DNA from: an uncultured Gemmatimonadales bacterium
GTDB taxonomy: Bacteria > Gemmatimonadota > Gemmatimonadetes > Longimicrobiales > RSA9
NCBI GenBank assembly: GCA_963798845.1
Contig: CAWCUS010000001.1
Location: 332,999 to 396,998, forward strand
Length of the DNA stretch: 64,000 nucleotides
Direction: 5' to 3'
Positions 6,529-60,322 of this stretch are shown here, in pieces. The stretch's first letter is position 1. Each line of letters starts with the position of its first letter. A program made the position numbers and the translations under genes. A model generated the notes under the pieces. It did no database searches, was not told the DNA's origin, and was given only the letters and a program-made list of their open reading frames with translations.

Positions 6529-8279
6529 GTCCCCCCAGGTATGCCGGCGGCGTTTGCGGCGGCCCGATCGCGAACCTCGTCCTGGCGATCCTGGACTGCC
6601 TTCTCTGCCGGGCTGGAACGGAACGTCAGCCACACGTTGTCGAAGCCCATGAGATCGACCACGCTCCGCCCGGCCGCGTCATCGTAGCGGACGCTTACGG
6701 TGTCGCCGGGGCGGGTCAGGGGGAGCTCGACGGAGAGGTCGCTGGCGCCCGCGAAGACGCGGTCCTCCAGGCCCTCGAGGACCAGGTAGTACGTGGTCTC
6801 TCCGCGCCGGGTGTCCGCGGAGATGCGCAGCACCGGGGCCGTGGCGGCGGCGAGGTCCATGTCCAGGTCGGCCGCCACCACGTTTCCGCGGCTGGTGAGG
6901 CGCCGCCGGTACTGGCGCATGGCGTCGGCCACGGTCTCTCCGACGCCCACGATCTGATAGTTCTGCTGCGACACCCAGGCGTACGCCTTGGCGAGCCCCT
7001 TGTTGTCCTTCAGGATGACGAAGAACGCAGGTTGCCCGGACACGTTGTAGGGGATCGGGAATCCGGCGCGGTAGCCGGCGTTCTGCACTGCCCCCTCGGC
7101 CGACCCGCTGGCCGCCTCCTCGGTGGCGCCGGCCTGGTGGTAGAGGCGAGTCTCCTTGGTGCGGGTGTCCACGAGGGTGAAACCGATGGTGCCCTCGTCG
7201 GAGCCGACGGAAGTCATCCCCGTGTACCAGTAGCTGCGGCCGTCGTCACCGTAGACGAGCGCTGTGCCGTTCGTCGGCATGACCTGGTCCATCTCGCTCG
7301 GGTTCCACCATCCGTTGACGAGGCGGCCCCAGAGGGTCAGCTGGGAGCGGACGAAGGGCTCCGGCTGGATCCGGTCGATCCACGCCGGGGCGTCGGCGGC
7401 GTCGTAGTCCTCGATGGCGCCGGTCTGGGCGTCGACCACGACCACGCCCGTGGCGTCGTCTCCGGCGAAGCCCACGCGCTTGGCGTAGCGGGTGACCACG
7501 TAGTACGGGCGCCCGGCGTCATCGATCTCGAAGGTGTAATCGGTCAGGCCCCGGGACGTGTAGCCATGCCCGTACAGGTAGCGGCGCAGGTCGCTGCCGA
7601 ACCAGTTCCCGCCGTTGTAGAGCAGATGGATCGGCTGCCCATCCAGCCGCTGGACCATGCGGGTGTCGCGGTCGTCCGTGGCGCTCACCATGATGTAGCC
7701 GGGCGTCCCCTGCTTGCGGAACTTGAGCCACTTGAACAGCCCCGAGTGGTTGAGCGGGGCCACCCAGTACAGGCGGCCGTTCACCTGCTGGATGTTCAGC
7801 GCCCCCACGGTCACCCGGCTGCCGAGCGCCGGATCCTCGCCCAGCAGCTTGTCCGCCAGCCTCCCTGCGAGCGGCTCGTCCACCGTGCGCACCTGGGACG
7901 GGTCCACCGGCGATGTGTCCGCGGAGTAGCTCGCCGCCTTCACCTCCCCGATCAGACCGTGATAGCGGGCCGCGTGGAGCCCGACCCACGTGGTGGCCAC
8001 GGCGACGCCGAGTCCGACGACACAGATCCCAGCGAGCGCCGCGGGCCCGATCCAGCGAGGCCGCCCGGCGCTGCGCATCCGGACCAGCTCCGCGAGGAAC
8101 ACGATGAAGGTCGTGACCAGGAAGGGCCCTGCCAGGTCGGGGAAGCCCCAGGCCAGGGTGGGAGTGAAGGCGTACGCAATCGTCGCCGCCGCGACGCCGC
8201 TCAGGGCAGTGGCGCCGGGGCGCCGCGTCGCGGCGAAGGCGATCGCCGCGAAAACCAGCCCGATCAGCAGGAACGTCAT
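6525..8279 (-). CDS. Uncharacterised membrane-anchored protein (about 4 N-terminal TMs plus a large extracytoplasmic domain)
   Basis: Long ORF with hydrophobic N-terminus and plausible globular content (LYWVAPL, DYTFEIDDAGRPYYVV, PAWIDRIQP); stop overlaps the GH47 start. Confidence 0.78.
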   Translation of the reverse strand: MTFLLIGLVFAAIAFAATRRPGATALSGVAAATIAYAFTPTLAWGFPDLAGPFLVTTFIVFLAELVRMRSAGRPRWIGPAALAGICVVGLGVAVATTWVGLHAARYHGLIGEVKAASYSADTSPVDPSQVRTVDEPLAGRLADKLLGEDPALGSRVTVGALNIQQVNGRLYWVAPLNHSGLFKWLKFRKQGTPGYIMVSATDDRDTRMVQRLDGQPIHLLYNGGNWFGSDLRRYLYGHGYTSRGLTDYTFEIDDAGRPYYVVTRYAKRVGFAGDDATGVVVVDAQTGAIEDYDAADAPAWIDRIQPEPFVRSQLTLWGRLVNGWWNPSEMDQVMPTNGTALVYGDDGRSYWYTGMTSVGSDEGTIGFTLVDTRTKETRLYHQAGATEEAASGSAEGAVQNAGYRAGFPIPYNVSGQPAFFVILKDNKGLAKAYAWVSQQNYQIVGVGETVADAMRQYRRRLTSRGNVVAADLDMDLAAATAPVLRISADTRRGETTYYLVLEGLEDRVFAGASDLSVELPLTRPGDTVSVRYDDAAGRSVVDLMGFDNVWLTFRSSPAEKAVQDRQDEVRDRAAANAAGIPGGT

Positions 8280-47197: not shown

Positions 47198-49591
47198 TCA
47201 GCTGCGGACGGCTTCTCCGGCGCTCGCGCTCCCCGCCGAGGTGCGCCGGCGATAGTCGCGCTGCCACGCGCTCAGCAGCCCGTCCGTACGTCGGCCGCTG
47301 CCCAGCACTTCGCGCACCCGGTCGGGGTCCGCTTCCAGGCCATTGAAAACGCGCTCGGCGCCGAACGTCTTGATCAGCGCCTCCGCCGTCTTCTGCCCCA
47401 CGCCCTGATAGCTGTTGGAGAGGTAGCGGATCACCGCGCCCTCCTCCGTGGGCAACCCCAGATCGTTCGGATCGAACCCGGCCAGCTCCGGCGCCGGCTC
47501 CGCGCCGGCCGCCGGCTCGGTGACGGCGTCCTGCTCCGTCTCGGGCTCCGCCAGGGCTTCCGTGCTCGGCCGCGACCCGGGCGCGGCCGCGCCGTTGTCG
47601 TCCGGCGAGCCTGCCGACGCCGCGGGGCTCTCCGGCCCCACCTCGGGCACCTCCACCGCCTGCGCGGGCTCACTTGCCGCCGGCGACGACTCCTCGGCCA
47701 CCTGCGATGCCGCCCCGCCGCCCGTGGCCGCACTGCCCACTACCTGGCCCGGAAGGAGCGGCGGCGGACCGTCGCTCGCGCCAGCACGGCGCCCGCCCCT
47801 GCGACCGTAGCTGCGCGGCTTCTTCTCGCCGGCGCCACCAGCCGCTGCCATCCCGGCCGGCCTGGCCGGAGCCTCCGCGTCGGCCGGCTTCTCCGTCTCG
47901 GCCTCCGTCTCGGCCTCCGGCTCTGACGGCTTCTCCGTCTCGAGCGCCGCCGGCTCGGCCGCCTCTTCGGCCGCCGGCGCCGCGGCTTCCCTCACCGTCT
48001 CCTCACGCTCCGTCGTGGCTCCGGGGCGAGCCCGGTCCTCCGCCGCGGCCGTGGCCTGCGTGGCCGGCTCCTCCCGCTCCTCCCGCTCCTCCCGCTCCTC
48101 CCGCTCCTCCCGCTCCTCCCGCTCCTGCGGCTCCTGCCGCTCTCCGCGCTCCTTGTCGCGCTCCGATCGCTGCGAGCGCTCCCGCCCGCGCGGCCGCTCA
48201 CGTGCCTCGCGTGCCTCGCTGCGCTGCTCCTCGCGGCCCCGGTCGCGCTGCTCCGGACGCGACGCAGCGGCCTGAGCGCCCCTGCGGAGACGCGCCTCGT
48301 AGTACCCGTCGGGCGACTTCTGGAGGTCGATGACCTCCACGTCGTGCGCCTGTCGGAGGAAGCGGCTGAACTTCGTGAAGCCGAGCGAGGATTCGTCCCA
48401 CCCGGACTCCAGCTCCAGCATCTGGCGCTTGATGTCCGAGTCGCGCGCCGCATCGCCGGTCTGGTTCACCAGCTTCGAGATCGCCTGCTGGAGCAGGTCG
48501 TAGCCGTGCTGGAGGTCCTCCTCCCGGCGCTCGCGCGTGGACGGGTGCGGTTTCGGCCGCTCGGTGCGGGGCGAGCGTTTCGACTCCGCTCGCGGCTCCG
48601 ACCGTGGCTCCCGCTTCGGCTCCCGCTTCGGCTCCGGCCGCGCCGTGGACTCACGCCTCGACTCCGGCTGCCCGGGCTGCTCCGGCTGCTGCTGCTCCGG
48701 CTGCGGCAGCGGTGCGGCCGCCTCGGCCCGGGGCTCGTCGCGGCGATCGCGGCGGCCACGGCCCCGGCGGCGCTCATCGCGCCGGTCGTCCCGGCTCTCG
48801 TCCCGGCTCTCCCGTTCGCCGTTCTCGTACGGCTGGACCTCGTACTGTCCGTTCTCCAGCTTCCGCAACGCAAGCCGGTTCCGGGATGCGGCTTCCGTCA
48901 GGAACTTGTTGAACTTGCTGAACCCGAGCTGGCTCTCGTCGAAATTGCTGTCCAGCTCCAGCATCACCTGCTTCAGCCGGTCGGAGCGCATGACGTCGTT
49001 CTGCGACGCCATCTGCTCCACCGCCCGCTGCGTCAGCTCCCACGGGTCCGTGCGCGACACCACGTCCTCTTCGCCCGCCTTCGTGAGACCGGTGAGGGAG
49101 GAGTAGGAGAAGTACTCGTCGCAGTTCTGGACCAGCAGGTCCGACGCCGATTCACGCAGCCCGACGCCGATGACGTACTTGCCGTACTCCTTCAGCTTCA
49201 GGACCAGGCTGCTGAAGTCGGAGTCGCCGGAAAGCAGGATGTAGGTCCCGATCTCCGGGCGAGTGAAGACCAGCTCCAGCGCATCGATGGCCAGCCGTAT
49301 GTCCGTGGCGTTCTTCTTCGAGCTGCCGTACGCCGGCGCGAAGATCAGGTCCACGCTGGCTTCGCTCAGCGGAACGATGTACTGCGCGTAGCGGCGCCAG
49401 TCCGCGTAGGCGCGCTGCACCGCCACCTTTCCCTTGATGATGTCGCTGTTGAGGAGTTCCTTCAGCTGGCGGGTGAGATCACTGCGGATGCCCATCGTGA
49501 CGTTGTCGAAATCGATGAGCAGCGCTGCGTTCGGCGCAACTTCGGGCGCGCCGGCGCCCCCACGATGAGGGGCGTTGATGAAGTTCTGCAT
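47198..49591 (-). CDS. NYN-domain ribonuclease with two LOTUS/OST-HTH domains, long disordered tracts and a C-terminal HhH-like domain
   Basis: NYN: ALLIDFDNV, RAYADW, KNATDI.LAIDA, LLSGDSDF, VIGVG, NCDEY; LOTUS-like LKQVMLELDSNFDESQLGFSKFNKFL and IKRQMLELESGWDESSLGFTKFSRFL. Confidence 0.88.
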   Translation of the reverse strand: MQNFINAPHRGGAGAPEVAPNAALLIDFDNVTMGIRSDLTRQLKELLNSDIIKGKVAVQRAYADWRRYAQYIVPLSEASVDLIFAPAYGSSKKNATDIRLAIDALELVFTRPEIGTYILLSGDSDFSSLVLKLKEYGKYVIGVGLRESASDLLVQNCDEYFSYSSLTGLTKAGEEDVVSRTDPWELTQRAVEQMASQNDVMRSDRLKQVMLELDSNFDESQLGFSKFNKFLTEAASRNRLALRKLENGQYEVQPYENGERESRDESRDDRRDERRRGRGRRDRRDEPRAEAAAPLPQPEQQQPEQPGQPESRRESTARPEPKREPKREPRSEPRAESKRSPRTERPKPHPSTRERREEDLQHGYDLLQQAISKLVNQTGDAARDSDIKRQMLELESGWDESSLGFTKFSRFLRQAHDVEVIDLQKSPDGYYEARLRRGAQAAASRPEQRDRGREEQRSEAREARERPRGRERSQRSERDKERGERQEPQEREEREEREEREEREEREEPATQATAAAEDRARPGATTEREETVREAAAPAAEEAAEPAALETEKPSEPEAETEAETEKPADAEAPARPAGMAAAGGAGEKKPRSYGRRGGRRAGASDGPPPLLPGQVVGSAATGGGAASQVAEESSPAASEPAQAVEVPEVGPESPAASAGSPDDNGAAAPGSRPSTEALAEPETEQDAVTEPAAGAEPAPELAGFDPNDLGLPTEEGAVIRYLSNSYQGVGQKTAEALIKTFGAERVFNGLEADPDRVREVLGSGRRTDGLLSAWQRDYRRRTSAGSASAGEAVRS
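48067..48126. repeat. In-frame 9-bp tandem repeat GCTCCTCCC, about 6.5 copies (encodes EER/REE repeats in the NYN protein)
   Basis: Read directly. Confidence 0.92.
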
Positions 49592-49786: not shown

Positions 49787-51388
49787 CTACGGTCGGCGGC
49801 TCGATTCCTCGGCGCTGACCATCCGCGCCAGCTCGACCCGCCGGACCTTCCCGCTCCCCGTCAAGGGGAACGAATCGAAGAAGCGGACCAGGTCCGGGAC
49901 CTTGAAATCCGCCAGCGCGCTCCGGCACCAATCCCTGATTTCCTCGCCGGTGATGATGGCGCCTTCGACGGGCACCACGCACGCGCAAACCTGCTCGCCG
50001 AGAACCTCGTGCGGCAACCCGACCACGGCCACGTCCATCACGGCCGGGTGGGCGTGCAGTCGGTCCTCGACTTCACGGGGGTAGACGTTGAAACCCCCGC
50101 GGATGATCAACTCCTTCCGTCGGCCCACGAGGTGGAGATAGCCCTCCTCGTCGATCATGCCCAGGTCTCCGGTCTGGAAGTACCCGGCCTCGTCGAACGC
50201 GTGGGACGTCTCCCCGGGCTGACGGTAGTAGCCTTTCATCACGCCGGGGCCTCTTACCCCGATCTCCCCAAGACTTTCCACCGGCAGCACGCTGCCGTCG
50301 AAGTCCAGGATCCTGACATCAATGGAAGGGAGCGGCTTCCCCACCGTGAACACCTTCTTCTCATCGGGGTCGCTCGGCTGCGTCATGGCCACGGTGGACG
50401 CCGTTTCCGTGAGGGAATAGGCGACGCACAGCTCCGGACACAGCTCCGCTCTGATGCGGCGGACCAGGTCATCCCCGACCGGCGCGCCCGCCACGATTCC
50501 CGCGCGCAGCGAGCTCAGGTCGTAGGACCGCTCCTCCAGCTCCCGCAGCTCGGTGATGAACACCGTGGGCACGCCGTAGTGCACGGTCGCGCGGTGCTCC
50601 TCGATGAGCGACAGCGCGGCCGCAGGCTCGAACGTCTCCTGCAGCACCAGCGTCGCGCCGGCAATCAGCGTGCCGAGAATGCCCGGGCCGAGCCCGAACA
50701 CGTGGAAAACCGTGGTGACGCCGAAGACGACGTCGTCGTGGCGCAGCCCGATGGCGTCCGCCGTGGCGGCCGCCGTTTCCAGCAGGTTGGCGTGTGTGAG
50801 GGCCACCCCCTTCGGCTTTCCCATCGTGCCGGAGGTGTAGAGGATGGCGAAGACCTCGTCCGCGGCGGTGGGGGCGGGCTCGAACGCGCGGCTCTCGCCG
50901 CTGGAGAGCAGATCTTCGAACTGGTAGATCCGGTCGTCGTACCAGAGGTCCGCCTCGCCGACCGTGACCAGGTACTGCAGCTCCGGCAGCGAAGTCAGGA
51001 AGCCCTCGAACAGCTCCAGGTAGTCCACGCCATTGAAGTCCTCGGCCGACACCACGGCCGCCGCTTCCGAGTGCCGCAGCATGTACTGCAGCTCCGGCAT
51101 CGTGTAGCGCGGATTCAGCGGGACGATCACGGCTCCGAGCTTGGCGGCCGCGAACAGCGAGATGGCGAACTCGGTCCAGTTCGGCAGATCCAGCGCGATT
51201 CGGTCGCCAGCCTCGATCCCCAGCTCCCGCAGGGACGCGGCCAGCGCCGTTGAACGCTCGTCGACCTGGCCATAGGTCAGCCTGCGGTTTCCGGAAATCA
51301 AGAAGACGCGGTCGGCGTCCTCCGCAGTCCGCGCCTCCAGCGCTTCGGCGACCGTCCTTCCCTGTATGCGCTCGACGAGCGCCATCAC
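49787..51388 (-). CDS. Long-chain acyl-CoA ligase (class I adenylate-forming)
   Basis: YTSGTMGKPKG, YSLTET, TGDLG, GRRKELIIRGGFNVYPREVE, PLTGSGKV. Confidence 0.9.
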   Translation of the reverse strand: MMALVERIQGRTVAEALEARTAEDADRVFLISGNRRLTYGQVDERSTALAASLRELGIEAGDRIALDLPNWTEFAISLFAAAKLGAVIVPLNPRYTMPELQYMLRHSEAAAVVSAEDFNGVDYLELFEGFLTSLPELQYLVTVGEADLWYDDRIYQFEDLLSSGESRAFEPAPTAADEVFAILYTSGTMGKPKGVALTHANLLETAAATADAIGLRHDDVVFGVTTVFHVFGLGPGILGTLIAGATLVLQETFEPAAALSLIEEHRATVHYGVPTVFITELRELEERSYDLSSLRAGIVAGAPVGDDLVRRIRAELCPELCVAYSLTETASTVAMTQPSDPDEKKVFTVGKPLPSIDVRILDFDGSVLPVESLGEIGVRGPGVMKGYYRQPGETSHAFDEAGYFQTGDLGMIDEEGYLHLVGRRKELIIRGGFNVYPREVEDRLHAHPAVMDVAVVGLPHEVLGEQVCACVVPVEGAIITGEEIRDWCRSALADFKVPDLVRFFDSFPLTGSGKVRRVELARMVSAEESSRRP

Positions 51389-51505: not shown

Positions 51506-52642
51506 TTATCGGCGCCGCGAGGCCTCCAGCGCCGCCAGCACCAGGGCGTCGGGCAGCGCGTGCGTCCACTCTCCCGCACCGCCGCGCGCCGGCTCACCGG
51601 GGCGCGCCACGAGCGCGTAACGGATGGCGCCGGCCCTCGCCTTCTTGTCCGATCTCGCCGCCTTCAGCACCTTTTTCGGTTCCATCCGATCGGGCACGGC
51701 CGTGGGGAGCCCGAACGCGGCCAGCGCCTCGGCGATGCGGGCGCTCGTGCCCGCGGCCGTCACACCCTCACGCTCTCCGGCCGCCGCCTCCACCACCATC
51801 CCGATGGCCACGGCGTCCCCGTGCGAGAGCCCGTAGCCGGAGACCCGCTCCAGCGCGTGCCCCACGGTGTGGCCGAAATTCAGCACCGCGCGCTCCCCCG
51901 CTTCCAGCACGTCCCGGGCGACCACGCCCGTCTTGATCCGGACCGAGCCCGCTACCAGCGCGGCCAGCGCCCGATCGTCTCGCCGGAAGATGGCATCCGC
52001 GTCGGCCACCAGGCGATCGAGGTAGTCGACGTCGGCGATGGCGCCGTGCTTGACGGCCTCGGCGAGGCCGGCGCGCAGCTCGCTGTCCGGCAGCGTGCTC
52101 AGGAAGCGCGGGTCCACCACCACCAGGCGCGGCTGGTGGAACGCGCCGACCAGGTTCTTTCCGGCGCTCAGGTCGAGCCCCGTCTTCCCGCCGATGGAGG
52201 CGTCCACCATGGCCAGGAGCGTGGTCGGCACCTGGACGAAGGCGACTCCCCGGCCGAACGTCGCGGCGGCGAAGCCCGCCACGTCGCCGGTCACGCCCCC
52301 GCCCAGCGCGACAATGCAACCATCGCGGCCGAGGCCGAGGTCGCCCAGCGCCTCCACCAGCGCCGCCCATCGCCCAGGCGTCTTGTGCGCCTCGCCCGCA
52401 CGGAGCCGCACCGCCTCGACGGCGTGCCCGGCCTCCCGAAGACGCGACAGGACGCGCTCGCCATGGAGGTCGGCGACGATGTCGTCGCAGACCAGGACGT
52501 ACTGCTGCGCCGGGACGTGGCGGCGCACCACCTCGCCCAGCCGGTCGGCGACGCCCGCGCCGATGATGATCTCGCACCGCTCCGGCGGGCGGGGCAGCAC
52601 CAGCGACACCAGCGCTTCGCCGCCGGCGGTCTCCTCGATCAC
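51506..52642 (-). CDS. aroB: 3-dehydroquinate synthase
   Basis: ALGGGVTGDVAGFAAAT..RG, VPTTLLAMVDASIGGKTG, KNLVGAFHQP, LNFGHT.GHALE, HGDAVAIGM, DKK; GTG overlaps the ybdK stop. Confidence 0.95.
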   Translation of the reverse strand: MIEETAGGEALVSLVLPRPPERCEIIIGAGVADRLGEVVRRHVPAQQYVLVCDDIVADLHGERVLSRLREAGHAVEAVRLRAGEAHKTPGRWAALVEALGDLGLGRDGCIVALGGGVTGDVAGFAAATFGRGVAFVQVPTTLLAMVDASIGGKTGLDLSAGKNLVGAFHQPRLVVVDPRFLSTLPDSELRAGLAEAVKHGAIADVDYLDRLVADADAIFRRDDRALAALVAGSVRIKTGVVARDVLEAGERAVLNFGHTVGHALERVSGYGLSHGDAVAIGMVVEAAAGEREGVTAAGTSARIAEALAAFGLPTAVPDRMEPKKVLKAARSDKKARAGAIRYALVARPGEPARGGAGEWTHALPDALVLAALEASRRR

Positions 52643-53781
52643 TCCGCCCGCTGCTTCCGCCGACGGTCGAAGCCCGTCCCCAGCAGCGTCTCCCGAACCA
52701 GCCACGCCATCACCTCCTCGAAGGACCCCGTCTCCGCGTGCACGCGACGCAGACGATCCGCGCCGTTGCCCCGCTCCAGCATCGTCTCCACCCGCTCCAG
52801 CACCCCCAGATCCCCCACCGCCGACGCCAGCTGCGCCGCGCCGTCGAGGATCCGCCGTATCGCCGGTCGCACGCCCGTCTTCCCGCTCGGGGTCTCCGGG
52901 TCCGTGAGCGCGCCGTCCAGCCCGAACCTCGCCGCGTGCCACTCGTTCTCGGTCAGGACCTCGCGCCAGACGTCCGGGCTCAGCCCCCCGGAGCCGGGCG
53001 CCTCGAGCTCCCCTTCCGCCACGCCCATGACCACGAGCCTCGCCAGCGCGGCGATCGTGGCGGCGTCTTCGAGCCGCGGGCAGACGTCCATCGCCCGGAA
53101 CTCCAGCGTCGGATAGGAGAAGTGGGGACGCAGGCTCCAGTACACGTTGCCCCGGTCCTGGATCGCTTCGCTCCGCAGCAGAAGGCTGATGAACCTGCGG
53201 TACTCCTCGTCACTTTCGAAGCGCGGCGGCACGCCGGTGTAGGGGTACTGCCGCCACAGGATCGAACGGTACGATGCGAACCCGGTGTCCTCCGCGTCCA
53301 GGAACGGTGAGCTGGCGGAGAGCGCCACCAGGTGCGGGATGAAGCCGCGAACCTGCTCCATCAGCATCGTCCGGTCGATGCGGTCCGGCACGCCCACGTG
53401 CACGTGCATGCCGAAGATGTTGACCTCCCGGGCGATCCGGTCATGGCGCTCGACGATGGCCCGGTAGCGCTCGTCCGGGTGGATCCCCGCGCCTTCCCAC
53501 GCGCTGAACGGGTGCAGCCCCGCCGCCGCGATGTCCACCCCCTCCGCCGCGGCCGTCGTGGCCGCCTGGAAGCGCTGGCGACGGAGCTCTCCCTCCACCT
53601 CCTCCACCGTCCCGCACACCGGCGTGCCGATCTCCACGGTGGTCTCGTGCAGCTCACCGCGCAGCTCGTTCGCCCAGTCCGTGGCCAGCACGTCGGACGC
53701 GCGGCTGCGCAGCGCACCCGTGTCGGGGTCCACCAGCTGGTACTCCTCCTCCACGCCCATCGTGTATTCGTGGTTGGCCAT
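52639..53781 (-). CDS. YbdK-family carboxylate-amine ligase (GCS2, glutamate-cysteine ligase-like)
   Basis: MGVEEEYQLVD, EIGTPVC, GLHPF, FGMHVHVG, ALSASSPF, TGFASYR, YWSLRP..SYPTLEFRAMD. Confidence 0.92.
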   Translation of the reverse strand: MANHEYTMGVEEEYQLVDPDTGALRSRASDVLATDWANELRGELHETTVEIGTPVCGTVEEVEGELRRQRFQAATTAAAEGVDIAAAGLHPFSAWEGAGIHPDERYRAIVERHDRIAREVNIFGMHVHVGVPDRIDRTMLMEQVRGFIPHLVALSASSPFLDAEDTGFASYRSILWRQYPYTGVPPRFESDEEYRRFISLLLRSEAIQDRGNVYWSLRPHFSYPTLEFRAMDVCPRLEDAATIAALARLVVMGVAEGELEAPGSGGLSPDVWREVLTENEWHAARFGLDGALTDPETPSGKTGVRPAIRRILDGAAQLASAVGDLGVLERVETMLERGNGADRLRRVHAETGSFEEVMAWLVRETLLGTGFDRRRKQRAE

Positions 53782-53910
53782 GCTTCTCGGGGCTCACCGT
53801 GTCGGGTGCCGCAGGGTACGGCTCTGAGGGTTTCGGTGGCAAATGCGGGGCCCGGAGAAACAGCGAGGCGCGCGCTCCACACACGAGCCTCTTCCATTCC
53901 GAAATCGCTT

Positions 53911-54012
53911 CATTATATTCTCTTCCCGACGGAGCACAGGTGCTCAAACGGGGCGCTCCGGCCATATGACGGAACGGCTAACAACCGCGTCTCTTTGCAG
54001 GGGCGCTTTTTT
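53911..54012 (+). promoter_or_regulatory. Structured leader with intrinsic terminator and alternative antiterminator pairing (attenuator or riboswitch candidate)
   Basis: -10-like TATATT at 53914-53919; terminator GCGTCTCT-ttgc-AGGGGCGC-TTTTTT at 53987-54012; second copy of GGGGCGC at 53950-53956. Confidence 0.6.
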
Positions 54013-54032
54013 CATGGGGTACGAACGAACCG

Positions 54033-55067
54033 ATGCCGCTGAATATCGGGCTCGCGTACAATCAGAAGCCTGACCCGGAGGACGAGCCTCCCGGTACCAG
54101 GCGTCCCCTCGACGACCGATTCGCCGAGTGGGACGACCCCTCGACAATCGCGGCCGTCGAGGCTGCGCTCGCCGAAGCCGGCGATGTGATCCGGCTCGAA
54201 GCCGATGAGGACTTCCCCGCCCGCCTCCGGGCGACCCGGCCCGACATCGTCTTCAACATCGCGGAGGGGCTGAACGGCCCCAACCGGGAAGCGCACGTCC
54301 CGGCCATCTGCGAGTTCTTCGGCATTCCCTACACCGGCAGCGACCCCCTCGCCCTGGCGCTCAGCCTGGACAAGCGGCGGGCCAAGGACGTGTTCCGTGC
54401 CGCCGGGGTCCCGACGCCCGCGGGCGTGTCGGTGTCGCGGCCGGAAGAGCGGCAGCTGGCGCTGCACGTGCCGATCCCGGCCATGGTGAAGCCGCTCTTC
54501 GAGGGCTCCAGCAAGGGCATCCCCGAGAGCGCGCTGTGCGAGAGTCCGGACGACGTGCTGGCACGCGTGGACGCCGTCCTGGAGGAGTACGGCCAGCCGG
54601 CGCTCGTGGAGACCTTCCTCCCCGGCCGGGAGTTCACGTGCGCCGTGCTGGGCAACGGTGACGGCGCGCGGGCGCTCCCGCTGGTGGAGATCCGGTTCGA
54701 CGCGCTGCCGGCGGGCGCGAAGCCGATTTACGGCTACGAGGCGAAGTGGGTCTGGGACACGCCCGACCGGCCGCTCTCCATTTTCAGCTGCCCCGCGGCG
54801 GTGGATGGGGCGCTGGGGTCGCTGATCGAGGGCACTGCGGTCGCCGCGTTCACCGCGCTCGGCTGCCGCGACTGGGCCCGGGTCGACCTCCGCCTCGACG
54901 ACGCCGGGCTCCCCCACGTGCTGGAGATCAATCCGCTCCCCGGCGTCCTGCCGGATCCGGAGCAGAATTCCTGCTACCCCAAGGCGGCACGGGCGGCCGG
55001 AATGGACTACGGCCAGATGATCCGGGCCGTGCTCGATGCTGGGCTGAACAGGTACGGCCTGCGATGA
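54033..55067 (+). CDS. D-alanine-D-alanine ligase-like ATP-grasp protein 1
   Basis: VFNIAEG, GIPYTGS...L.LDK, VKPLFEGSSKGI, VETFLPGREF, YGYEAKW, ARVDLR, LEINPLPG. Confidence 0.88.
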   Translation: MPLNIGLAYNQKPDPEDEPPGTRRPLDDRFAEWDDPSTIAAVEAALAEAGDVIRLEADEDFPARLRATRPDIVFNIAEGLNGPNREAHVPAICEFFGIPYTGSDPLALALSLDKRRAKDVFRAAGVPTPAGVSVSRPEERQLALHVPIPAMVKPLFEGSSKGIPESALCESPDDVLARVDAVLEEYGQPALVETFLPGREFTCAVLGNGDGARALPLVEIRFDALPAGAKPIYGYEAKWVWDTPDRPLSIFSCPAAVDGALGSLIEGTAVAAFTALGCRDWARVDLRLDDAGLPHVLEINPLPGVLPDPEQNSCYPKAARAAGMDYGQMIRAVLDAGLNRYGLR

Positions 55068-56101
55068 GGATCGCCGTCGCCTACGACCGCGCCGCCGACG
55101 CCCGCGAGGGCGACGCCCCGCACTCCGGCCGTGACGACGCGGCCGTCCGGGACCGCCCCGCTTCCTCCCCCGCCCCCGCGCTCCCGGAGCGATCCGCCGC
55201 CGCGCCCGATGTGGCCGGGGTGCGCGAGGCGGTGGACGCCGTGGTCGAGAGCCTGGGGCGCCTCGGCCACGCCGCGTTCCCCGTCGCAGTGCACGCGCCG
55301 CTGGAGCGGTTCCTCACCCGATTGAGAGGCGTGGAGCTGGTCTTCAACCTCGCCGAGGGGCTCGACGGACGGGCGGAGGACGAGCCGCGCCTCGCCGCCC
55401 TCATGGAGCTCTCCGGGCACCCCGTCACCGGCGCGTCCTCGGACACGCTGGCGCTGTGCCGGCGCAAGGACCGGGTCAACACCCTGGCCGCCAGCCGCGG
55501 GCTGGCCGTTCCGCCCTGGGCGGTGGCCCGGCCAGGCCGGCCCGGATGCCCGCTCCCCGGCTGGACGATCTTCCCGGCCATCGTCAAGCCGGTGGACGAG
55601 GACGGGTCCGTCGGCATCCACGGGGACTCCGTGGTGGAGGACGCGCTCGAGCTCACCGCCTCGCTCGAGCGCGCGGACGGCGAGGTCCTCGTCCAGGCCT
55701 TCGTCGCCGGTCGCGAGTTCAACGTCGGCTTCGTCGGTGAAGAGGCCCTGCCGCTGGCGGAGATCGTGTTCGCCGGAACGCAGCGGGTGGTGAGCTACGC
55801 TGCCAAGTGGGCACCGGGCTCGGCCGACGACCTGTCGACCCTCCCCGTCTGCCCCGCCCGCGTCACCGCCACGTTCCACGACGACGCCGTGGCGCTCGCC
55901 CGTGAGGCCTGGGGCGCCGTGGGCGGACACGGGTACGGCCGCGTGGACCTCCGCACGAACGCAGATGGTCGGCTGAACCTGCTGGACGTCAACCCGAACC
56001 CCGACCTGGCTCCCTCCGCCGGGCTGGCGCGCATGGCGCGCGTGGCCGGCTGGGGCTTCGACGATCTGGTGGCACGGATCGTGGAGGAAGCGGTCGCATG
56101 A
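55064..56101 (+). CDS. D-alanine-D-alanine ligase-like ATP-grasp protein 2
   Basis: VFNLAEG, PVTGAS, IVKPVDEDGSVGI, FVAGREFNV, SYAAKW, YGRVDLR, LDVNPNPDL; ATGA overlap with ligase 1. Confidence 0.85.
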   Translation: MRIAVAYDRAADAREGDAPHSGRDDAAVRDRPASSPAPALPERSAAAPDVAGVREAVDAVVESLGRLGHAAFPVAVHAPLERFLTRLRGVELVFNLAEGLDGRAEDEPRLAALMELSGHPVTGASSDTLALCRRKDRVNTLAASRGLAVPPWAVARPGRPGCPLPGWTIFPAIVKPVDEDGSVGIHGDSVVEDALELTASLERADGEVLVQAFVAGREFNVGFVGEEALPLAEIVFAGTQRVVSYAAKWAPGSADDLSTLPVCPARVTATFHDDAVALAREAWGAVGGHGYGRVDLRTNADGRLNLLDVNPNPDLAPSAGLARMARVAGWGFDDLVARIVEEAVA

Positions 56102-56610
56102 CTATCAAAACCCTTCAAAACGAGATGGCGACCGTGTTGCGGGCGCTGGAGCCGGGAGACCGGCCGGCGCTCGAGCGGCTGGTCCGATCCGTGGAGCTGT
56201 TCAGCGCCGCGGAGAAGGACGTGGCGATGGAAGTGCTGGACGGATACATGGAGCACCCCGGGAAGGACTACCACGCGCTGGGCGCCTTCACCCACAGTGG
56301 CGACCTCCTGGGCTACGCGTGCTACGGCCCCACGCCGTGCACCGAGGGCACCTGGGACCTCTACTGGATCGCCGTGTCCGGGGAGTCCCGGGGCCGAGGC
56401 ATCGGAACCCTGCTGATGGAGGAGATTGAACGAAGGCTCGTCGAACAACACGCTCGACTCGTGCTCATCGAGACCGCCTCGCGCGCCGACTACGCCCCTA
56501 CCCGGGCGTTCTACGAGCGGCGCGACTACCAGGTGGTCGCACGGGTCCCGGATTTCTATGCGCCGGGCGACGATCGCGTGATCTTCGCCCGCACCTTCCC
56601 CAGCGTTTGA
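56098..56610 (+). CDS. GNAT N-acetyltransferase
   Basis: GYACYGPTP...GTWDLYWIAV...RGRGIG, IETAS...Y.PTRAFY; ATGA overlap with ligase 2. Confidence 0.9.
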   Translation: MTIKTLQNEMATVLRALEPGDRPALERLVRSVELFSAAEKDVAMEVLDGYMEHPGKDYHALGAFTHSGDLLGYACYGPTPCTEGTWDLYWIAVSGESRGRGIGTLLMEEIERRLVEQHARLVLIETASRADYAPTRAFYERRDYQVVARVPDFYAPGDDRVIFARTFPSV

Positions 56611-56624
56611 CCGACGAGAGAGAA

Positions 56625-58094
56625 ATGTCCAACTGGCAAGAGACCCTGAGGCAGAGCGTCACGACGGTAGACGATCTGATCGACCGCTTCGGTGCCGAGA
56701 ACGTGGACCGTGAAGCGGTCGAGAAGGCCATCGAGAAGTTCAACCTTCGCATCACCCCGGCCGCGCTTGCGCAGATCAAGGCGCCGGGCGACTGGGCATG
56801 GAACCAGTACGTACCCACGGGCGCGGAGAACGAGGTCGTGGACGGGATCGTCGACTCGCTGGACGAAGACGCGGACTCGCCCGTCCCGAACATCACGCAC
56901 CGCTACCCGGACCGCGTGCTGTTCCTGGTCTCGCCGGTGTGCTCCACCTACTGCCGGTTCTGCACGCGCCGACGGAAGGTGGGCGACCCGGAGAAGATCC
57001 CGCTGAACCAGTTCGACGCCGCGTTCGCATACCTGCGCGAGCATACGGAAGTGCGCGACGTGGTGCTCTCCGGCGGCGATCCGTTCATGCTGAGCGACCG
57101 GCGAATCGAGTACTTCCTCTCGACACTGCGCGCCATCCCGCACATCGAGATCATCCGAATCCACTCCCGGGTGCCCAACCACCTCCCCGAACGTGTCACG
57201 CCCGAGCTGGCGGACATGATCAGGAAGTACCACCCGGTGTACGTGAACGTGCACTTCAACCACCCGGACGAGCTCACGCCGGAGTCCATGAAGGCGCTCG
57301 GCCTGCTGGCAGACGCCGGCATCCCGCTCGGTTCCCAGAGCGTGCTGCTCAAGGGCGTGAACGACGACCCGGCGATCATGAAGCGGCTGATGCAGCGGCT
57401 CCTCGTCGCCCGCGTGAAGCCGTACTACATCTACCAGGCGGACGTGGTGGCCGGCGGCGAGCACTTCCGCACGTCCGTGCAGAAGGGGATCGAGATCATC
57501 CAGGCGATCCGCGGCTGGACTTCCGGGCTCGGCGTCCCGCACTACGTCATTGACGCCCCCGGCGGCGGCGGCAAGATCCCGATCCTGCCCGAGTACGTGC
57601 AGGCGGTCACCGACAGCGAGATCGTGCTCCGCAACTACGCGGGCGAGGAGTTCCGCTACCCGCTCCCGCAGGAGCCTGCGCGCGTCGGCAACGGGTGCGA
57701 CATCCCGAGCATCCCGAGCCGCATCGCCGCCCGCACCGCCCGCTCCGGCGGCGTCGCCGGCGCCGGCAAGAACGAGAACGGGCGGGCGCGGCACAAGAAG
57801 GCGGCGAGCGCCCAGGCCAACGCCAACCGCAGCGGCGGGGCCGCAGGCCGGTCCAGCCGCCCGTCCAATGGGAACGGCCGCAAAGCCGACCGCGCGATCG
57901 GCACGTCCGGGCCGAGCAACGGCGGCGGAAATGGCGGACCGAGGATATCCTCTGACGGCGGCGCGGGCTCGAACGGCAACCGCCAGCCCAGGACGAACGG
58001 CAACGGGCACCGGAACGGCCGCGGGAACGGCCACGCCGACCCGGCTCAGATCACCATCGAGACGCTGGGCGGCATCGTGCCGATGGACGTGTAG
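56625..58094 (+). CDS. KamA-family radical SAM lysine 2,3-aminomutase with low-complexity C-terminal tail
   Basis: ITHRYPDRVL, CSTYCRFCTRRR, VLSGGDP, HFNHP.E, QSVLLKGVND, PYYIYQAD, GWTSG, YVIDAPGGGGKIP (PLP lysine). Confidence 0.92.
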   Translation: MSNWQETLRQSVTTVDDLIDRFGAENVDREAVEKAIEKFNLRITPAALAQIKAPGDWAWNQYVPTGAENEVVDGIVDSLDEDADSPVPNITHRYPDRVLFLVSPVCSTYCRFCTRRRKVGDPEKIPLNQFDAAFAYLREHTEVRDVVLSGGDPFMLSDRRIEYFLSTLRAIPHIEIIRIHSRVPNHLPERVTPELADMIRKYHPVYVNVHFNHPDELTPESMKALGLLADAGIPLGSQSVLLKGVNDDPAIMKRLMQRLLVARVKPYYIYQADVVAGGEHFRTSVQKGIEIIQAIRGWTSGLGVPHYVIDAPGGGGKIPILPEYVQAVTDSEIVLRNYAGEEFRYPLPQEPARVGNGCDIPSIPSRIAARTARSGGVAGAGKNENGRARHKKAASAQANANRSGGAAGRSSRPSNGNGRKADRAIGTSGPSNGGGNGGPRISSDGGAGSNGNRQPRTNGNGHRNGRGNGHADPAQITIETLGGIVPMDV

Positions 58095-58110: not shown

Positions 58111-58377
58111 GAGCGCTGGCGTCGGCCCGGCGGCCGGCGGAGGGTTGGCTTAGCCCGGCGGCGGCGGAGCGCTGGCCCCGGCCCGGCGGCGCCCGAGCGC
58201 TGGCCCCGGCCCGGCGGCCGGCGGAGCGCTGGCGTCGGCCCGGCGGCGGCCGAGCGCTGGCGTCGGCCCGGCGGCCGGCGGAGGGTTGGCTTAGCCCGGC
58301 GGCGGCGGAGCGTTGGCTTAGCCCGGCGGCGCCCGAGCGCTGGCCCCGGCCCGGCGGCGCCCGAGCGCTGGCGTCGG
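58111..58377. repeat. Degenerate 27-29-bp tandem array, about 9.5 units: GAG(C/G)G(C/T)TGGC-[GTCG/CCCG/TTA]-GCCCGGCGGC-[variable 4-5 nt]
   Basis: Units parsed by hand, starting just downstream of the kamA stop. Confidence 0.9.
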
Positions 58378-58563: not shown

Positions 58564-58892
58564 CAGGCGGGCTCCGCCTTCGAGGCCAGGCGGGCTCCGC
58601 CTTCCCGGCGCCAGGCGGCCTCGGCCTTCGAGGCCAGGCGGGCTCCGCCTTCCCGGCGCCAGGCGGCCTCGGCCTTCGAGGCCAGGCGGGCTCCGCCTTC
58701 GCGGCCAGGCGGGGTCGGCGTTCGAGGCCAGGCGGGCTCCGCCTTCGAGGCCAGGCGGCCTCGGCCTCTGCGGCCAGGCGGCCTCGGGGCTTCCGCGCCA
58801 GGCGGCCTCGACCTCCGCGGCCAGGCGGCCTCGGGGCTTCGGCGCCAGGCAGCCTCGGGGCTTCCGCGCCCGGCGGGCTCGGCCTTCCGCGC
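58564..58892. repeat. Degenerate 23-25-bp tandem array, about 14 units, consensus CAGGCGG(G/C)CTC(C/G)GCCTTCGAGGC
   Basis: Units parsed by hand; ends at the stop codon of the convergent gene; AGGCGG-gct-CCGCCT is self-complementary. Confidence 0.9.
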
Positions 58893-60322
58893 TAGGCGCC
58901 CTCGTCCAGTCTGATGAGCGCCGGGGCCAACACGGTCGCGGGGTCGCCGCCGGCCGGGGTTTCAACGACACGGACCACGGGGCGTCCCTTGACGGTCATG
59001 CGGTCCACGGTCCCGGCCCGCCCGGGGCGGGCGGCGAGGACGCGGCGGTAGTCGGTGGCGAAGCGGTCGGCGGAGGCGTCGTCGTCCCACACGGAGTACC
59101 AGACCAGCGCCTGTCGGCCGTCGGGGCCGTCCAGGAGCGCGTAGCGGTCACCGTCCCAGCCGCGGGCGAAGTCGACGCCGGCCGCGCCCGGCCGAGCGCC
59201 CTCCCCATTCCGTGGGGCGCCGGCCGCGCCCGGCCGAGCGCCCTCCCCATTCCGCCGGGCGCCGGCCGCCCGGGGCGAACCGTCGGCGGCGGCCTCATCT
59301 CCGAGGTACTCGTCGAGGATGATGGACGTCTCGAGCTCGCCGAAATCGTTGGCGTAGGCCACGCTCCAGCCGTCGCCGGGAGCGCCCAGGTAGAGCGTGG
59401 TGGGCGCGTCGCGCGAGTCGATGAAGCGGTCCACGGGTCGCAGGACCTGCTCGGTGGACTGCGGAAGGAGGTCGCCGAAGGGGATGGGGATGTCGTCGCC
59501 CCGGCGGTGGCGAAAAAGCGCCTGCACGAACACGGCGCCGCCCATGTAGGGGAAGATGAGCGTCTCCCGGATGATGCGAGGGGCGCGCTGGAAGACGGGG
59601 TAGCGGTCGTTATGCCCCTCGATGGCCGGACGAAGGAGGCCGCGCATGTCAGGGAGGGTGCCCGGGTCGACGCGCTTGCCGGTTGCCCGCGCGGTCTGGA
59701 GGGCGGCCATGACCAGCGTCGCCTGCCCCTCGGCCGCGGCCTGCGCGGCCATCTGGCGGTCGTTGCCGCGCTCCCGCGACACCAGGGAGTCCAGGTCGGT
59801 GTACTGGTCCTGGAGCGCGTGCACCAGCTCGTGGGCGACCACCGGCGCAGCGGAGTCCGCGGCCACCCCCGCCAGCACGTAGAGCCGGTCCGACTTGGGA
59901 TCGTAGTAGCCCACCACCTGCTCGGCGTACAGCTCCAGCAGGAGCACGCGCAGGTCCATGGTGTCCGGGATCAGCCCGAGCGCGCGGTACACCCGCTCGG
60001 TCCCGCGCAGCTCCTCCGGGCCCATATCCTCGTCGAGCTGCGCGTCGATGAACGCCCGCGCGTCCGAGCGGGACTGGAGCGCGTACGCCACCGGGTGCTG
60101 CACGGGCAGCCCGCTCGCCTTGGAGATCTCCGGGACCAGCGCGTCGATCATGGCCGCGAGCCCCGCCGAGTCCAGGGGCGCCCCCGGCGTCGAGCCCGCG
60201 CGGGCGACGCCGCCGCCCGCCTCCGAGCGCTGTCGGGCCGCCGCGCCGCCCCAGCTGTCGCAGGCGGCCTGGGACAGCGCGAGGGCCGCCACGGCGACGG
60301 CCGCGATGCTACGCCCCGTCAT
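58892..60322 (-). CDS. Putative zinc metallopeptidase-like lipoprotein (HExxH)
   Basis: Lipobox-like LSQAAC; QVVGYYDP...LY, VVAHELVHALQDQY, AAEGQAT, FPY.GG..FV, PQSTEQ, GWDGDRY. Confidence 0.75.
   Translation of the reverse strand: MTGRSIAAVAVAALALSQAACDSWGGAAARQRSEAGGGVARAGSTPGAPLDSAGLAAMIDALVPEISKASGLPVQHPVAYALQSRSDARAFIDAQLDEDMGPEELRGTERVYRALGLIPDTMDLRVLLLELYAEQVVGYYDPKSDRLYVLAGVAADSAAPVVAHELVHALQDQYTDLDSLVSRERGNDRQMAAQAAAEGQATLVMAALQTARATGKRVDPGTLPDMRGLLRPAIEGHNDRYPVFQRAPRIIRETLIFPYMGGAVFVQALFRHRRGDDIPIPFGDLLPQSTEQVLRPVDRFIDSRDAPTTLYLGAPGDGWSVAYANDFGELETSIILDEYLGDEAAADGSPRAAGARRNGEGARPGAAGAPRNGEGARPGAAGVDFARGWDGDRYALLDGPDGRQALVWYSVWDDDASADRFATDYRRVLAARPGRAGTVDRMTVKGRPVVRVVETPAGGDPATVLAPALIRLDEGA
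59176..59269. repeat. In-frame 42-bp duplication (about 2.2 copies) in the metallopeptidase gene
   Basis: CGCCGGCCGCGCCCGGCCGAGCGCCCTCCCCATTCCG at 59176 and 59218; encodes (RNGEGARPGAAG..)2. Confidence 0.85.

Follow-up and report, generated by a model that had tools for sequence, protein, structure and literature searches.

Which compound is made where a lysine 2,3-aminomutase is encoded beside two ATP-grasp ligases? The question is raised by a stretch of 64,000 nucleotides (nt) from an uncultured Gemmatimonadales bacterium (assembly GCA_963798845.1, contig CAWCUS010000001.1, positions 332,999 to 396,998; hereafter the window), in which four genes encode two paralogous ligases resembling D-alanine–D-alanine ligase (Ddl), here called G1 and G2, a GNAT N-acetyltransferase and a KamA-family aminomutase (Table 1; all coordinates are positions in the window, counted along its forward strand). 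We propose that these genes form a conserved, self-contained module in which KamA would supply beta-lysine, a heterodimer of G1 and G2 would form amide bonds and the GNAT would optionally acetylate, yielding a small cytoplasmic beta-lysine peptide; we put the chances that this reading is correct at about even.

The initial annotation of this DNA had described the four genes as tightly coupled and had named their families, and both descriptions stand. ATGA overlaps of start and stop codons join G1 to G2 (55064–55067) and G2 to the GNAT gene (56098–56101), and the GNAT stop codon (56608–56610) is followed, after a purine-rich gap of 14 nt, by the ATG at 56625, the start that we prefer for kamA, although a TTG at 56607 is possible. 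This packing leaves no space for internal promoters, and the four genes are one co-transcribed unit. Pfam and NCBIfam agree with all family assignments, including that of the divergent YbdK-like gene upstream. The G+C content around the locus is 0.65–0.78.

Table 1. Genes of the operon and features upstream of it, with family scores (aa, amino acids).
Feature	Position	Strand	Description
G1, Ddl-like ATP-grasp ligase	54033..55067	+	344 aa; AEWD and FNIAEG motifs; PF07478 102.6 bits
G2, Ddl-like ATP-grasp ligase, paralogue of G1	55064..56101	+	345 aa; PF07478 88.9 bits
GNAT N-acetyltransferase, accessory	56098..56610	+	170 aa; PF00583 46.6 bits
KamA-family lysine 2,3-aminomutase	56625 (ATG) or 56607 (TTG)..58094	+	489 or 495 aa; TIGR00238 273.8
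YbdK-like/GCS2 protein, divergent, upstream of G1	52639..53781	-	380 aa; PF04107 182 bits; TIGR02050 275.6
Possible leader element: GC hairpin, U6, then CAUGGGGUA	53987..54022	+	terminator-like site just 5' of the G1 start

Conservation, fusions and variants of the cassette

The gene set had been called an orphan, a description that we abandon: the cassette is found again in a number of bacterial phyla and, in the form of a KamA–ligase fusion, in clusters named archaeal. A pattern scan of one genome per species returned 586 stretches with a G1 relative, the best 80 of which were examined; gene content was judged in the 61 that extend at least 3.3 kb 3' of G1. A second ligase adjoins G1 in 60 of these 61 loci (G1 standing alone in the other one), a KamA of more than 45% identity is present in 53 and a GNAT in 50. 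All four genes occur in the window's order in 43, so that the synteny of kamA, two Ddl-like genes and a GNAT gene expected from the window holds across genomes. Both ligases and KamA are kept in 10 loci with no GNAT within 8 kb even at E < 5, and the GNAT is accordingly an accessory member. The gene order, G1-G2-(GNAT)-KamA on one strand, is constant among the related loci.

By their record titles, these loci come from Gemmatimonadota, Rokubacteria, Ignavibacteriota/Kryptonia/Bacteroidota, Desulfuromonadales, Acidobacteriota and Wallbacteria. Similar sequences and common neighbours led us to group three records as follows: ‘Bacterium HR33’ (L052) and L058, a ‘Bacillota’ bin, count as Gemmatimonadota, and L059, a ‘Synechococcus’ bin, counts with the Ignavibacteriota/Bacteroidota group. 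All-against-all clustering of open reading frames of at least 90 aa revealed no other neighbour common across phyla, the remaining shared neighbours being lineage-specific housekeeping genes (for example FAD oxidase, ThyX, thiolase, EF-G and RecG). Among the same reading frames the cassette has no conserved companion that is an exporter, regulator, resistance gene or carrier protein. This points to a product that probably remains in the cytoplasm, and to an intracellular small molecule more than to an antibiotic or siderophore.

Across 151 evenly sampled genomes of the phylum (the tallies include genome G057, without which each shifts by one) the picture is similarly one of linkage. G1 is present in 73 genomes, and every one of the 62 with a close KamA orthologue (E ≤ 1e-147) belongs to these 73. 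Among the rows listed, about 1.5–2 kb of a single contig separates the two genes, except in G047, where each is on a contig of its own. The cassette was found in none of the 18 sampled genomes of the window's own order and not in the single one of its own family. Two other families of the class commonly carry it (57 of 71 and 14 of 31 genomes). Relatives of G1 that are 65–90% identical occur in metagenome bins named Gemmatimonadota/Longimicrobiales. That the sampled genomes of the window's own order lack the cassette while metagenome proteins 80–90% identical exist suggests patchy retention or transfer.

A quick maximum-likelihood tree of the ligases, with support from the Shimodaira–Hasegawa-like approximate likelihood ratio test (SH-aLRT) only, gathers every ‘second’ ligase into a single clade (support 97) that excludes the ‘first’ ligases, and the taxon groupings of the two sets are broadly parallel. 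This pattern suggests an old duplication whose two copies have been inherited together. Two further Ddl paralogues from the window's own genome form long branches in this tree. One of them (L002, at G000:C4:21607-22221; PF07478 about 101–105 bits), which is about 35% identical to both G1 and G2 and lies beside a DUF932 gene, falls among the ‘second’ ligases, where its placement is uncertain.

Gene fusions link the enzymes of the cassette to one another. A HMMER search with G1 against 1.8 billion representative sequences returned 1252 representative clusters at E ≤ 1e-30, and the 150 best include 39 ligase–ligase, three KamA–ligase, one ligase–KamA and two ligase–GNAT fusions (classes assigned with Pfam for 20 of the 150 and by BLAST against the window's proteins for the rest). 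When one KamA–ligase fusion was itself used as the query, 108 of the 120 clusters listed carried both KamA and Ddl_C domains, and one was a KamA–GNAT fusion. The source names in this listing include Thermoplasmatota, Methanocellales, Woesearchaeota, Nanoarchaeota, Spirochaetales and Clostridia, on contigs of up to 654 kb. In five metagenome loci such a fusion is followed directly by a second ligase; the trio thus persists in another gene order.

A variant operon was seen in eight to nine of 55 metagenome loci (L098, L099, L109, L110, L114, L117, L118 and L119, with L108 partial) and in neither the window nor the 80 genome loci. Here a distant MurL-like protein and a LysA/FslC-like decarboxylase dependent on pyridoxal phosphate (PLP) are inserted between G2 and KamA, in the order ligase, ligase, MurL-like protein (442 aa; 32 bits), decarboxylase (456 aa; 160 bits on lysA, cut-off 298, and 107 bits on the N-citrylornithine decarboxylase model), KamA. 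These two additions are typical supply or tailoring functions of small-molecule or small-peptide pathways. A different arrangement occurs at 3505–7125 of L129, and also in L128, L130 and L135, where a divergent ligase, a GNAT of the Acetyltransf_3 type and a G1-like ligase precede a short, divergent KamA-like protein of the radical S-adenosylmethionine (SAM) type; the latter is 35–39% identical and adjoins an IleRS-type tRNA synthetase and a U32 peptidase.

Residues of the ligases, the aminomutase and the acetyltransferase

The initial annotation had doubted that the two ligases make D-Ala-D-Ala, and the profile scores bear out that doubt. On the Ddl models NF002378 and TIGR01205 (cut-offs 243 and 245.65), G1 scores 177.1 and 136.2 and G2 119.4 and 103.1, all below the cut-offs, while a canonical Ddl of the same genome, at about 492.9 kb of the contig and about 105 kb from the operon, exceeds both (334.6 and 295.6). 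That distant paralogue is the genome's real Ddl, and G1 and G2 are not classical Ddl enzymes.

Nevertheless, the closest solved relatives of the ligases are all Ddl or VanA, the best Protein Data Bank (PDB) match of G1 being E. coli DdlB (2dln/1iov; E 1.6e-32), and ESM Atlas returned only clusters named ‘D-alanine--D-alanine ligase family’, with no functional lead. G1 and G2 are 33% identical to each other, and by alignment both keep the ATP-grasp catalytic residues of Ddl. Those of DdlB, which we take to be K97, K144, E180, K215, R255, D257, E270 and N272, correspond to K114, K153, E193, K238, R283, D285, E298 and N300 in G1 and to K135, K175, E218, K248, R293, D295 and N310 in G2. Nine residues of G1 (F74, N75, E78, K114, K153, E193, D285, R287 and N300) are invariant in 33 relatives, and five of the ATP/Mg site of G2 (K135, K175, R293, D295 and N310) in 16 relatives.

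Differences from Ddl include the D-Ala site, of which His63 and Tyr216 are residues in DdlB. The FN(I/L)AEG segment reported previously is confirmed; it puts a glutamate, the invariant E78 of G1, at the position of His63, so that the D-Ala site histidine is missing, and N75 of the same segment is equally invariant. The position of Tyr216 is occupied by tryptophan (W239 in G1, W249 in G2), and each ligase has an invariant arginine that is extra relative to DdlB (R287 and R297, respectively). G1 keeps the equivalents of Glu15, Ser150 and Ser281, the glutamate of its AEWD motif being the probable counterpart of Glu15 by motif position. G2, whose segment reads FNLAEG in the window and FNLCEG in most relatives, shares the FNLxEG glutamate and the extra arginine with G1, but has neither an AEWD motif nor an equivalent of Ser281. 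The two ligases are thus like Ddl in fold, in their closest sequence relatives and in the catalytic Lys, Arg, Asp, Glu and Asn, and unlike it in the exchanges at His63 and Tyr216, the extra arginine, their Ddl-model scores (177 and 119 bits), which miss the cut-off of 243, and their occurrence as a pair or a fusion next to KamA.

KamA belongs to its family by score (cut-off of TIGR00238 199.2; Table 1), by a CSTYCRFC radical-SAM motif and by the PLP lysine in IDAPGGGGK. Its alignment with clostridial lysine 2,3-aminomutase (2a5h; E 3.4e-114) matches YQAD to YQCD and IDAPGGGGK to VDAPGGGGK. Asp293 and Asp330 of the clostridial enzyme, which we take to bind the epsilon-amine of lysine, are both kept by KamA, and each is found in 65 of 67 operon-linked KamAs (the other two not being covered by the alignment); the initial annotation was right in pointing out lysine-type acidic residues in KamA. 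KamA nonetheless scores below every equivalog cut-off: 437.3 against 525.4 for AblA (TIGR03820), 373 against 650 for glutamate mutase, 306 against 600 for arginine mutase and 222 against 369.3 for EpmB. Its catalytic core ends at about residue 365 (numbered from 56607) and is followed by a G/N/R-rich tail of about 130 aa. This tail (57700–58094) is probably disordered and has no counterpart in the clostridial enzyme; such tails seem to be lineage-specific, as the open frames of relatives range from about 358 to 700 aa.

The GNAT has as its best PDB match 2r7h (E 1.2e-32), an uncharacterised structural-genomics deposit titled ‘putative D-alanine N-acetyltransferase’, and as its best NCBIfam match RimI, with 43 bits against a cut-off of 86.4. 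The AblB model, whose name we take to be TIGR03827, is not among its six NCBIfam matches at E ≤ 0.01; judged by these profiles, the GNAT is not AblB.

A proposed beta-lysine peptide and its alternatives

We infer a pathway, including an order of steps, a substrate for each ligase, a heterodimer, a product and a physiological role, from what is shown: the families of the genes, their conserved synteny, their fusions and the catalytic and lysine-binding residues that they retain. KamA, with its radical-SAM and PLP chemistry, would turn free L-lysine into beta-lysine. G1 and G2, anciently duplicated Ddl-type ligases, would probably act as a heterodimer (elsewhere as one fused polypeptide), each converting a carboxylate into an acyl phosphate at the expense of ATP and each forming one amide bond. 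Of the two, G1 is more likely to bind the diamino acid beta-lysine, which it probably activates or accepts, because it keeps the amino-binding glutamate of Ddl and has added acidic residues (E32, D34 and E78), conserved around the first substrate site. G2, which has no amino-binding motif, would catalyse another kind of ligation as the second one, with a substrate that is perhaps N-blocked or a peptide, and the GNAT, where present, would acetylate a leftover free amine as optional tailoring. The product would be a small beta-lysine-containing di- or tripeptide or short oligomer. The N-acylated beta-lysine peptide suggested in the initial annotation is the most economical product, a reading that the synteny and the fusions support. 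By likeness to acetyl-beta-lysine and to N-acetylglutaminylglutamine amide (NAGGN), the product may serve as a compatible-solute-like or nitrogen-rich protective metabolite.

Several known systems resemble parts of this scheme. NAGGN, an N-acetylated dipeptide osmolyte, is made without ribosomes by Ngg, a GNAT fused to an ATP-grasp dipeptide ligase, together with AsnO. That system likewise combines an acetyltransferase with an ATP-grasp ligase, and ligase–GNAT fusions occur among G1 relatives too; the cassette differs from it in its ATP-grasp subfamily, in having no amidotransferase and in a beta-amino acid that would come from a radical-SAM mutase. GshF, a gamma-glutamylcysteine synthetase fused to a Ddl-like ATP-grasp domain, synthesizes a tripeptide in two steps, and so offers a precedent both for two ligations in one polypeptide or complex and for a Ddl-like domain working on a substrate other than D-Ala; here, however, both ligases are ATP-grasp paralogues, and a GCS2/YbdK neighbour is found in none of the 80 loci. 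With AblA/AblB, by which methanogens and some bacteria make N-epsilon-acetyl-beta-lysine, the cassette shares a lysine-type KamA adjoining a GNAT and a product that is probably a cytoplasmic, amine-neutralised derivative of beta-lysine, but KamA is short of the AblA cut-off (437 against 525), the GNAT is dispensable as well as distinct from AblB, and the conserved core consists of two ATP-grasp ligases and KamA.

Several points weigh against the proposed pathway. The substrates assigned to G1 and G2 come from motif comparison with E. coli DdlB and the residue roles described for it, and are to be taken as provisional. The heterodimer is similarly qualified: a complex model of G1 with G2, as the initial annotation had envisaged, passes at 0.83 against 0.00 for the best control, with at least 93% of contacts shared between runs and a partner predicted local distance difference test (pLDDT) score of at least 77, by a mark that 58 of 80 solved complexes and two of 110 mismatched pairs reach, but since Ddl homodimers are solved this pass may reflect mere likeness, and the model does not tell a heterodimer from a homodimer. 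No close adjacent KamA is present in seven of the 61 loci (two of which have a KamA-family gene of 29–33% identity instead), nor is a close KamA present in 11 of the 73 sampled genomes with G1 (in one of these KamA is split into two pieces, and in two G1 lies at the end of a contig), so that beta-lysine may not be obligatory in every lineage. The compatible-solute role is without regulatory support, as no Rfam element lies upstream (see below). Finally, both ligases might instead act in extending a polymer or in modifying a macromolecule.

The first of these options, in which G1 and G2 would polymerize beta-lysine into an oligomer or polymer, or build a branched polyamide like cyanophycin, as a nitrogen or carbon store or a polycation, with the GNAT capping or neutralising amines, is the best of the alternatives, though we consider it unlikely. 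Cyanophycin synthetase has two activities, which the two ligase activities in one complex or fusion recall, and some ATP-grasp enzymes oligomerise amino acids. The glutamate of the FN(I/L)(A/C)EG segment, kept by both ligases, could bind the amine of the same substrate, and the lysine-supply-like decarboxylase of the variant operon would suit a high flux. On the other hand, the cassette has no conserved companion gene of the hydrolase, primer-related or granule-associated kind, and G1 and G2 differ at both predicted substrate sites, which suits two different reactions better than repeated elongation.

Slightly less probable still is a modification of the cell envelope, either by an alternative dipeptide or by beta-lysine added to a peptidoglycan precursor. 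In its part on an extra ‘type 3’ Ddl operon of a lichen Nostoc, PMC5987646 proposes a peptidoglycan role, although that operon may not be the same as ours. The exclusively Ddl/VanA character of the closest solved relatives would suit such a role, as would the distant MurL-like protein (32 bits) of the variant operon. Yet the KamA–ligase fusions include clusters named Thermoplasmatota, Woesearchaeota, Nanoarchaeota and Methanocellales by their sources, which are archaea without murein; moreover, mur, fts, flippase and transpeptidase genes are not among the conserved neighbours of the cassette, and the genome has its own canonical Ddl.

Ligation of beta-lysine to a protein, as in the beta-lysylation of elongation factor P (EF-P) or in a ribosomal modification of the RimK/RimI type, appears improbable. 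To our knowledge, the modification of EF-P at lysine-34 is the only well-established non-metabolite fate of beta-lysine in bacteria. In that system (EpmA/EpmB) a KamA-family mutase also feeds beta-lysine to a dedicated ligase, but EpmA is a LysRS paralogue that acts on a protein, whereas the ligases here are Ddl-like and neither RimK- nor LysX-like, and KamA, at 222 bits, is far from the EpmB cut-off of 369.3. As the initial annotation had stated, the operon is distant from efp, which lies about 39 kb away, and the genome has no epmA above the cut-off (best match 253 bits against 286.9), an absence that speaks for this reading. RimI is the best NCBIfam match of the GNAT, yet falls far short of the cut-off. 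Among genes of at least 90 aa, none for a target or carrier is conserved nearby, and the EF-P loop of this genome reads KPGKGPA, a type reported to work unmodified in Actinobacteria.

That the operon is an AblAB system with two ordinary or redundant Ddl genes next to it by chance is very improbable: KamA's best equivalog is indeed the AblA-type lysine 2,3-aminomutase (437 bits), and KamA adjoining a GNAT is the AblAB pattern of PMC3543383 and PMC9337991, but the GNAT of about 170 aa has no AblB model among its matches and is absent from 10 of the 61 loci that keep the ligases and KamA (for which reason ‘AblA/AblB plus ligases’ is not the right frame), KamA is fused to a ligase and not usually to a GNAT (108 of the 120 clusters listed), and G1 and G2 fall far below the Ddl cut-offs in a genome with a true Ddl elsewhere.

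Returning to the peptide pathway, a broader reading, in which our confidence falls a little short of even, is that KamA with a paired or fused double ATP-grasp ligase constitutes a synthetase that has gone unrecognised in bacteria and apparently archaea and that makes beta-lysine peptides of a new family. Such peptides would represent an overlooked but common class of cytoplasmic metabolite (stress protectant, polycation or store), with the GNAT, the decarboxylase and the MurL-like epimerase as lineage-specific tailoring. The established fates of beta-lysine are the acetylated osmolyte, EF-P modification, lysine fermentation and a few antibiotics; if the reading is true, the module adds another, and the automatic name ‘D-alanine--D-alanine ligase’ would be corrected for thousands of proteins. 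Recognising the module is easy, and its conservation extends over several bacterial phyla and, as far as source names tell, apparently to archaea; its core of three or four genes and natural single-polypeptide versions make a direct test by heterologous expression and mass spectrometry possible. In a literature search that stopped short of one survey of ATP-grasp amidoligases and of the supplement of PMC5987646, we found no paper on KamA with paired Ddl-like ligases.

Flanking genes and the region upstream of G1

The divergent gene upstream of G1 is a genuine member of the YbdK family (TIGR02050 cut-off 176.4; Table 1), and the initial annotation had allowed it a gamma-glutamylation step in the pathway. 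We reject it as a pathway member: at E ≤ 1e-5 it has no counterpart in the 80 related loci (only three chance-level fragments appear at E < 5), and the gene directly 3' of it on the reverse strand is a bona fide aroB (TIGR01357 345.9 against a cut-off of 305), both of which mark YbdK as an incidental neighbour. A mycosporine-like link through a dehydroquinate-synthase homologue was likewise rejected, the gene being a true AroB.

Between YbdK and G1 lies a terminator-like site (Table 1). Two such sites were found where 1.9 were expected, so that this one is not significant alone; nonetheless, a hairpin followed by U5/6 and CAU(A)GGGGUA stands 15–25 nt 5' of G1 in the window and in its two closest relatives, L010 and L011 (at about 7950–7990 in both). 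YbdK being divergent, the hairpin is not its terminator, and the element could be a leader attenuator or a piece of the ribosome-binding region. Compared with shuffled sequences, the leader folds have no extra stability (z = -1.1 in the window, -0.4 in L010 and -1.1 in L011). Rfam returned only two chance-level miRNA matches in the window between 52000 and 60000 at E ≤ 1 and only two tRNAs in eight diverse related loci, with no osmotic-stress riboswitch or other element in either, and riboswitch control was rejected on these grounds.

Public read data for the window list no RNA run and three DNA runs, all from one study, the best of which contains 0.28 of the sampled words. Just 3' of kamA are GC-rich tandem arrays at 58111–58377, 58564–58904 and 59176–59269, with repeat units of 28 nt (9.5 copies), 23, 48 or 71 nt (5–14 copies) and 42 nt (2.2 copies), and without any Pfam-recognisable gene across them. 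On the far side of the operon, the reverse strand encodes a 797-aa protein with an N-terminal NYN nuclease domain and an OST-HTH/LOTUS domain (47198–49591), the next gene after which is an acyl-CoA synthetase on the same strand (49787–51388).

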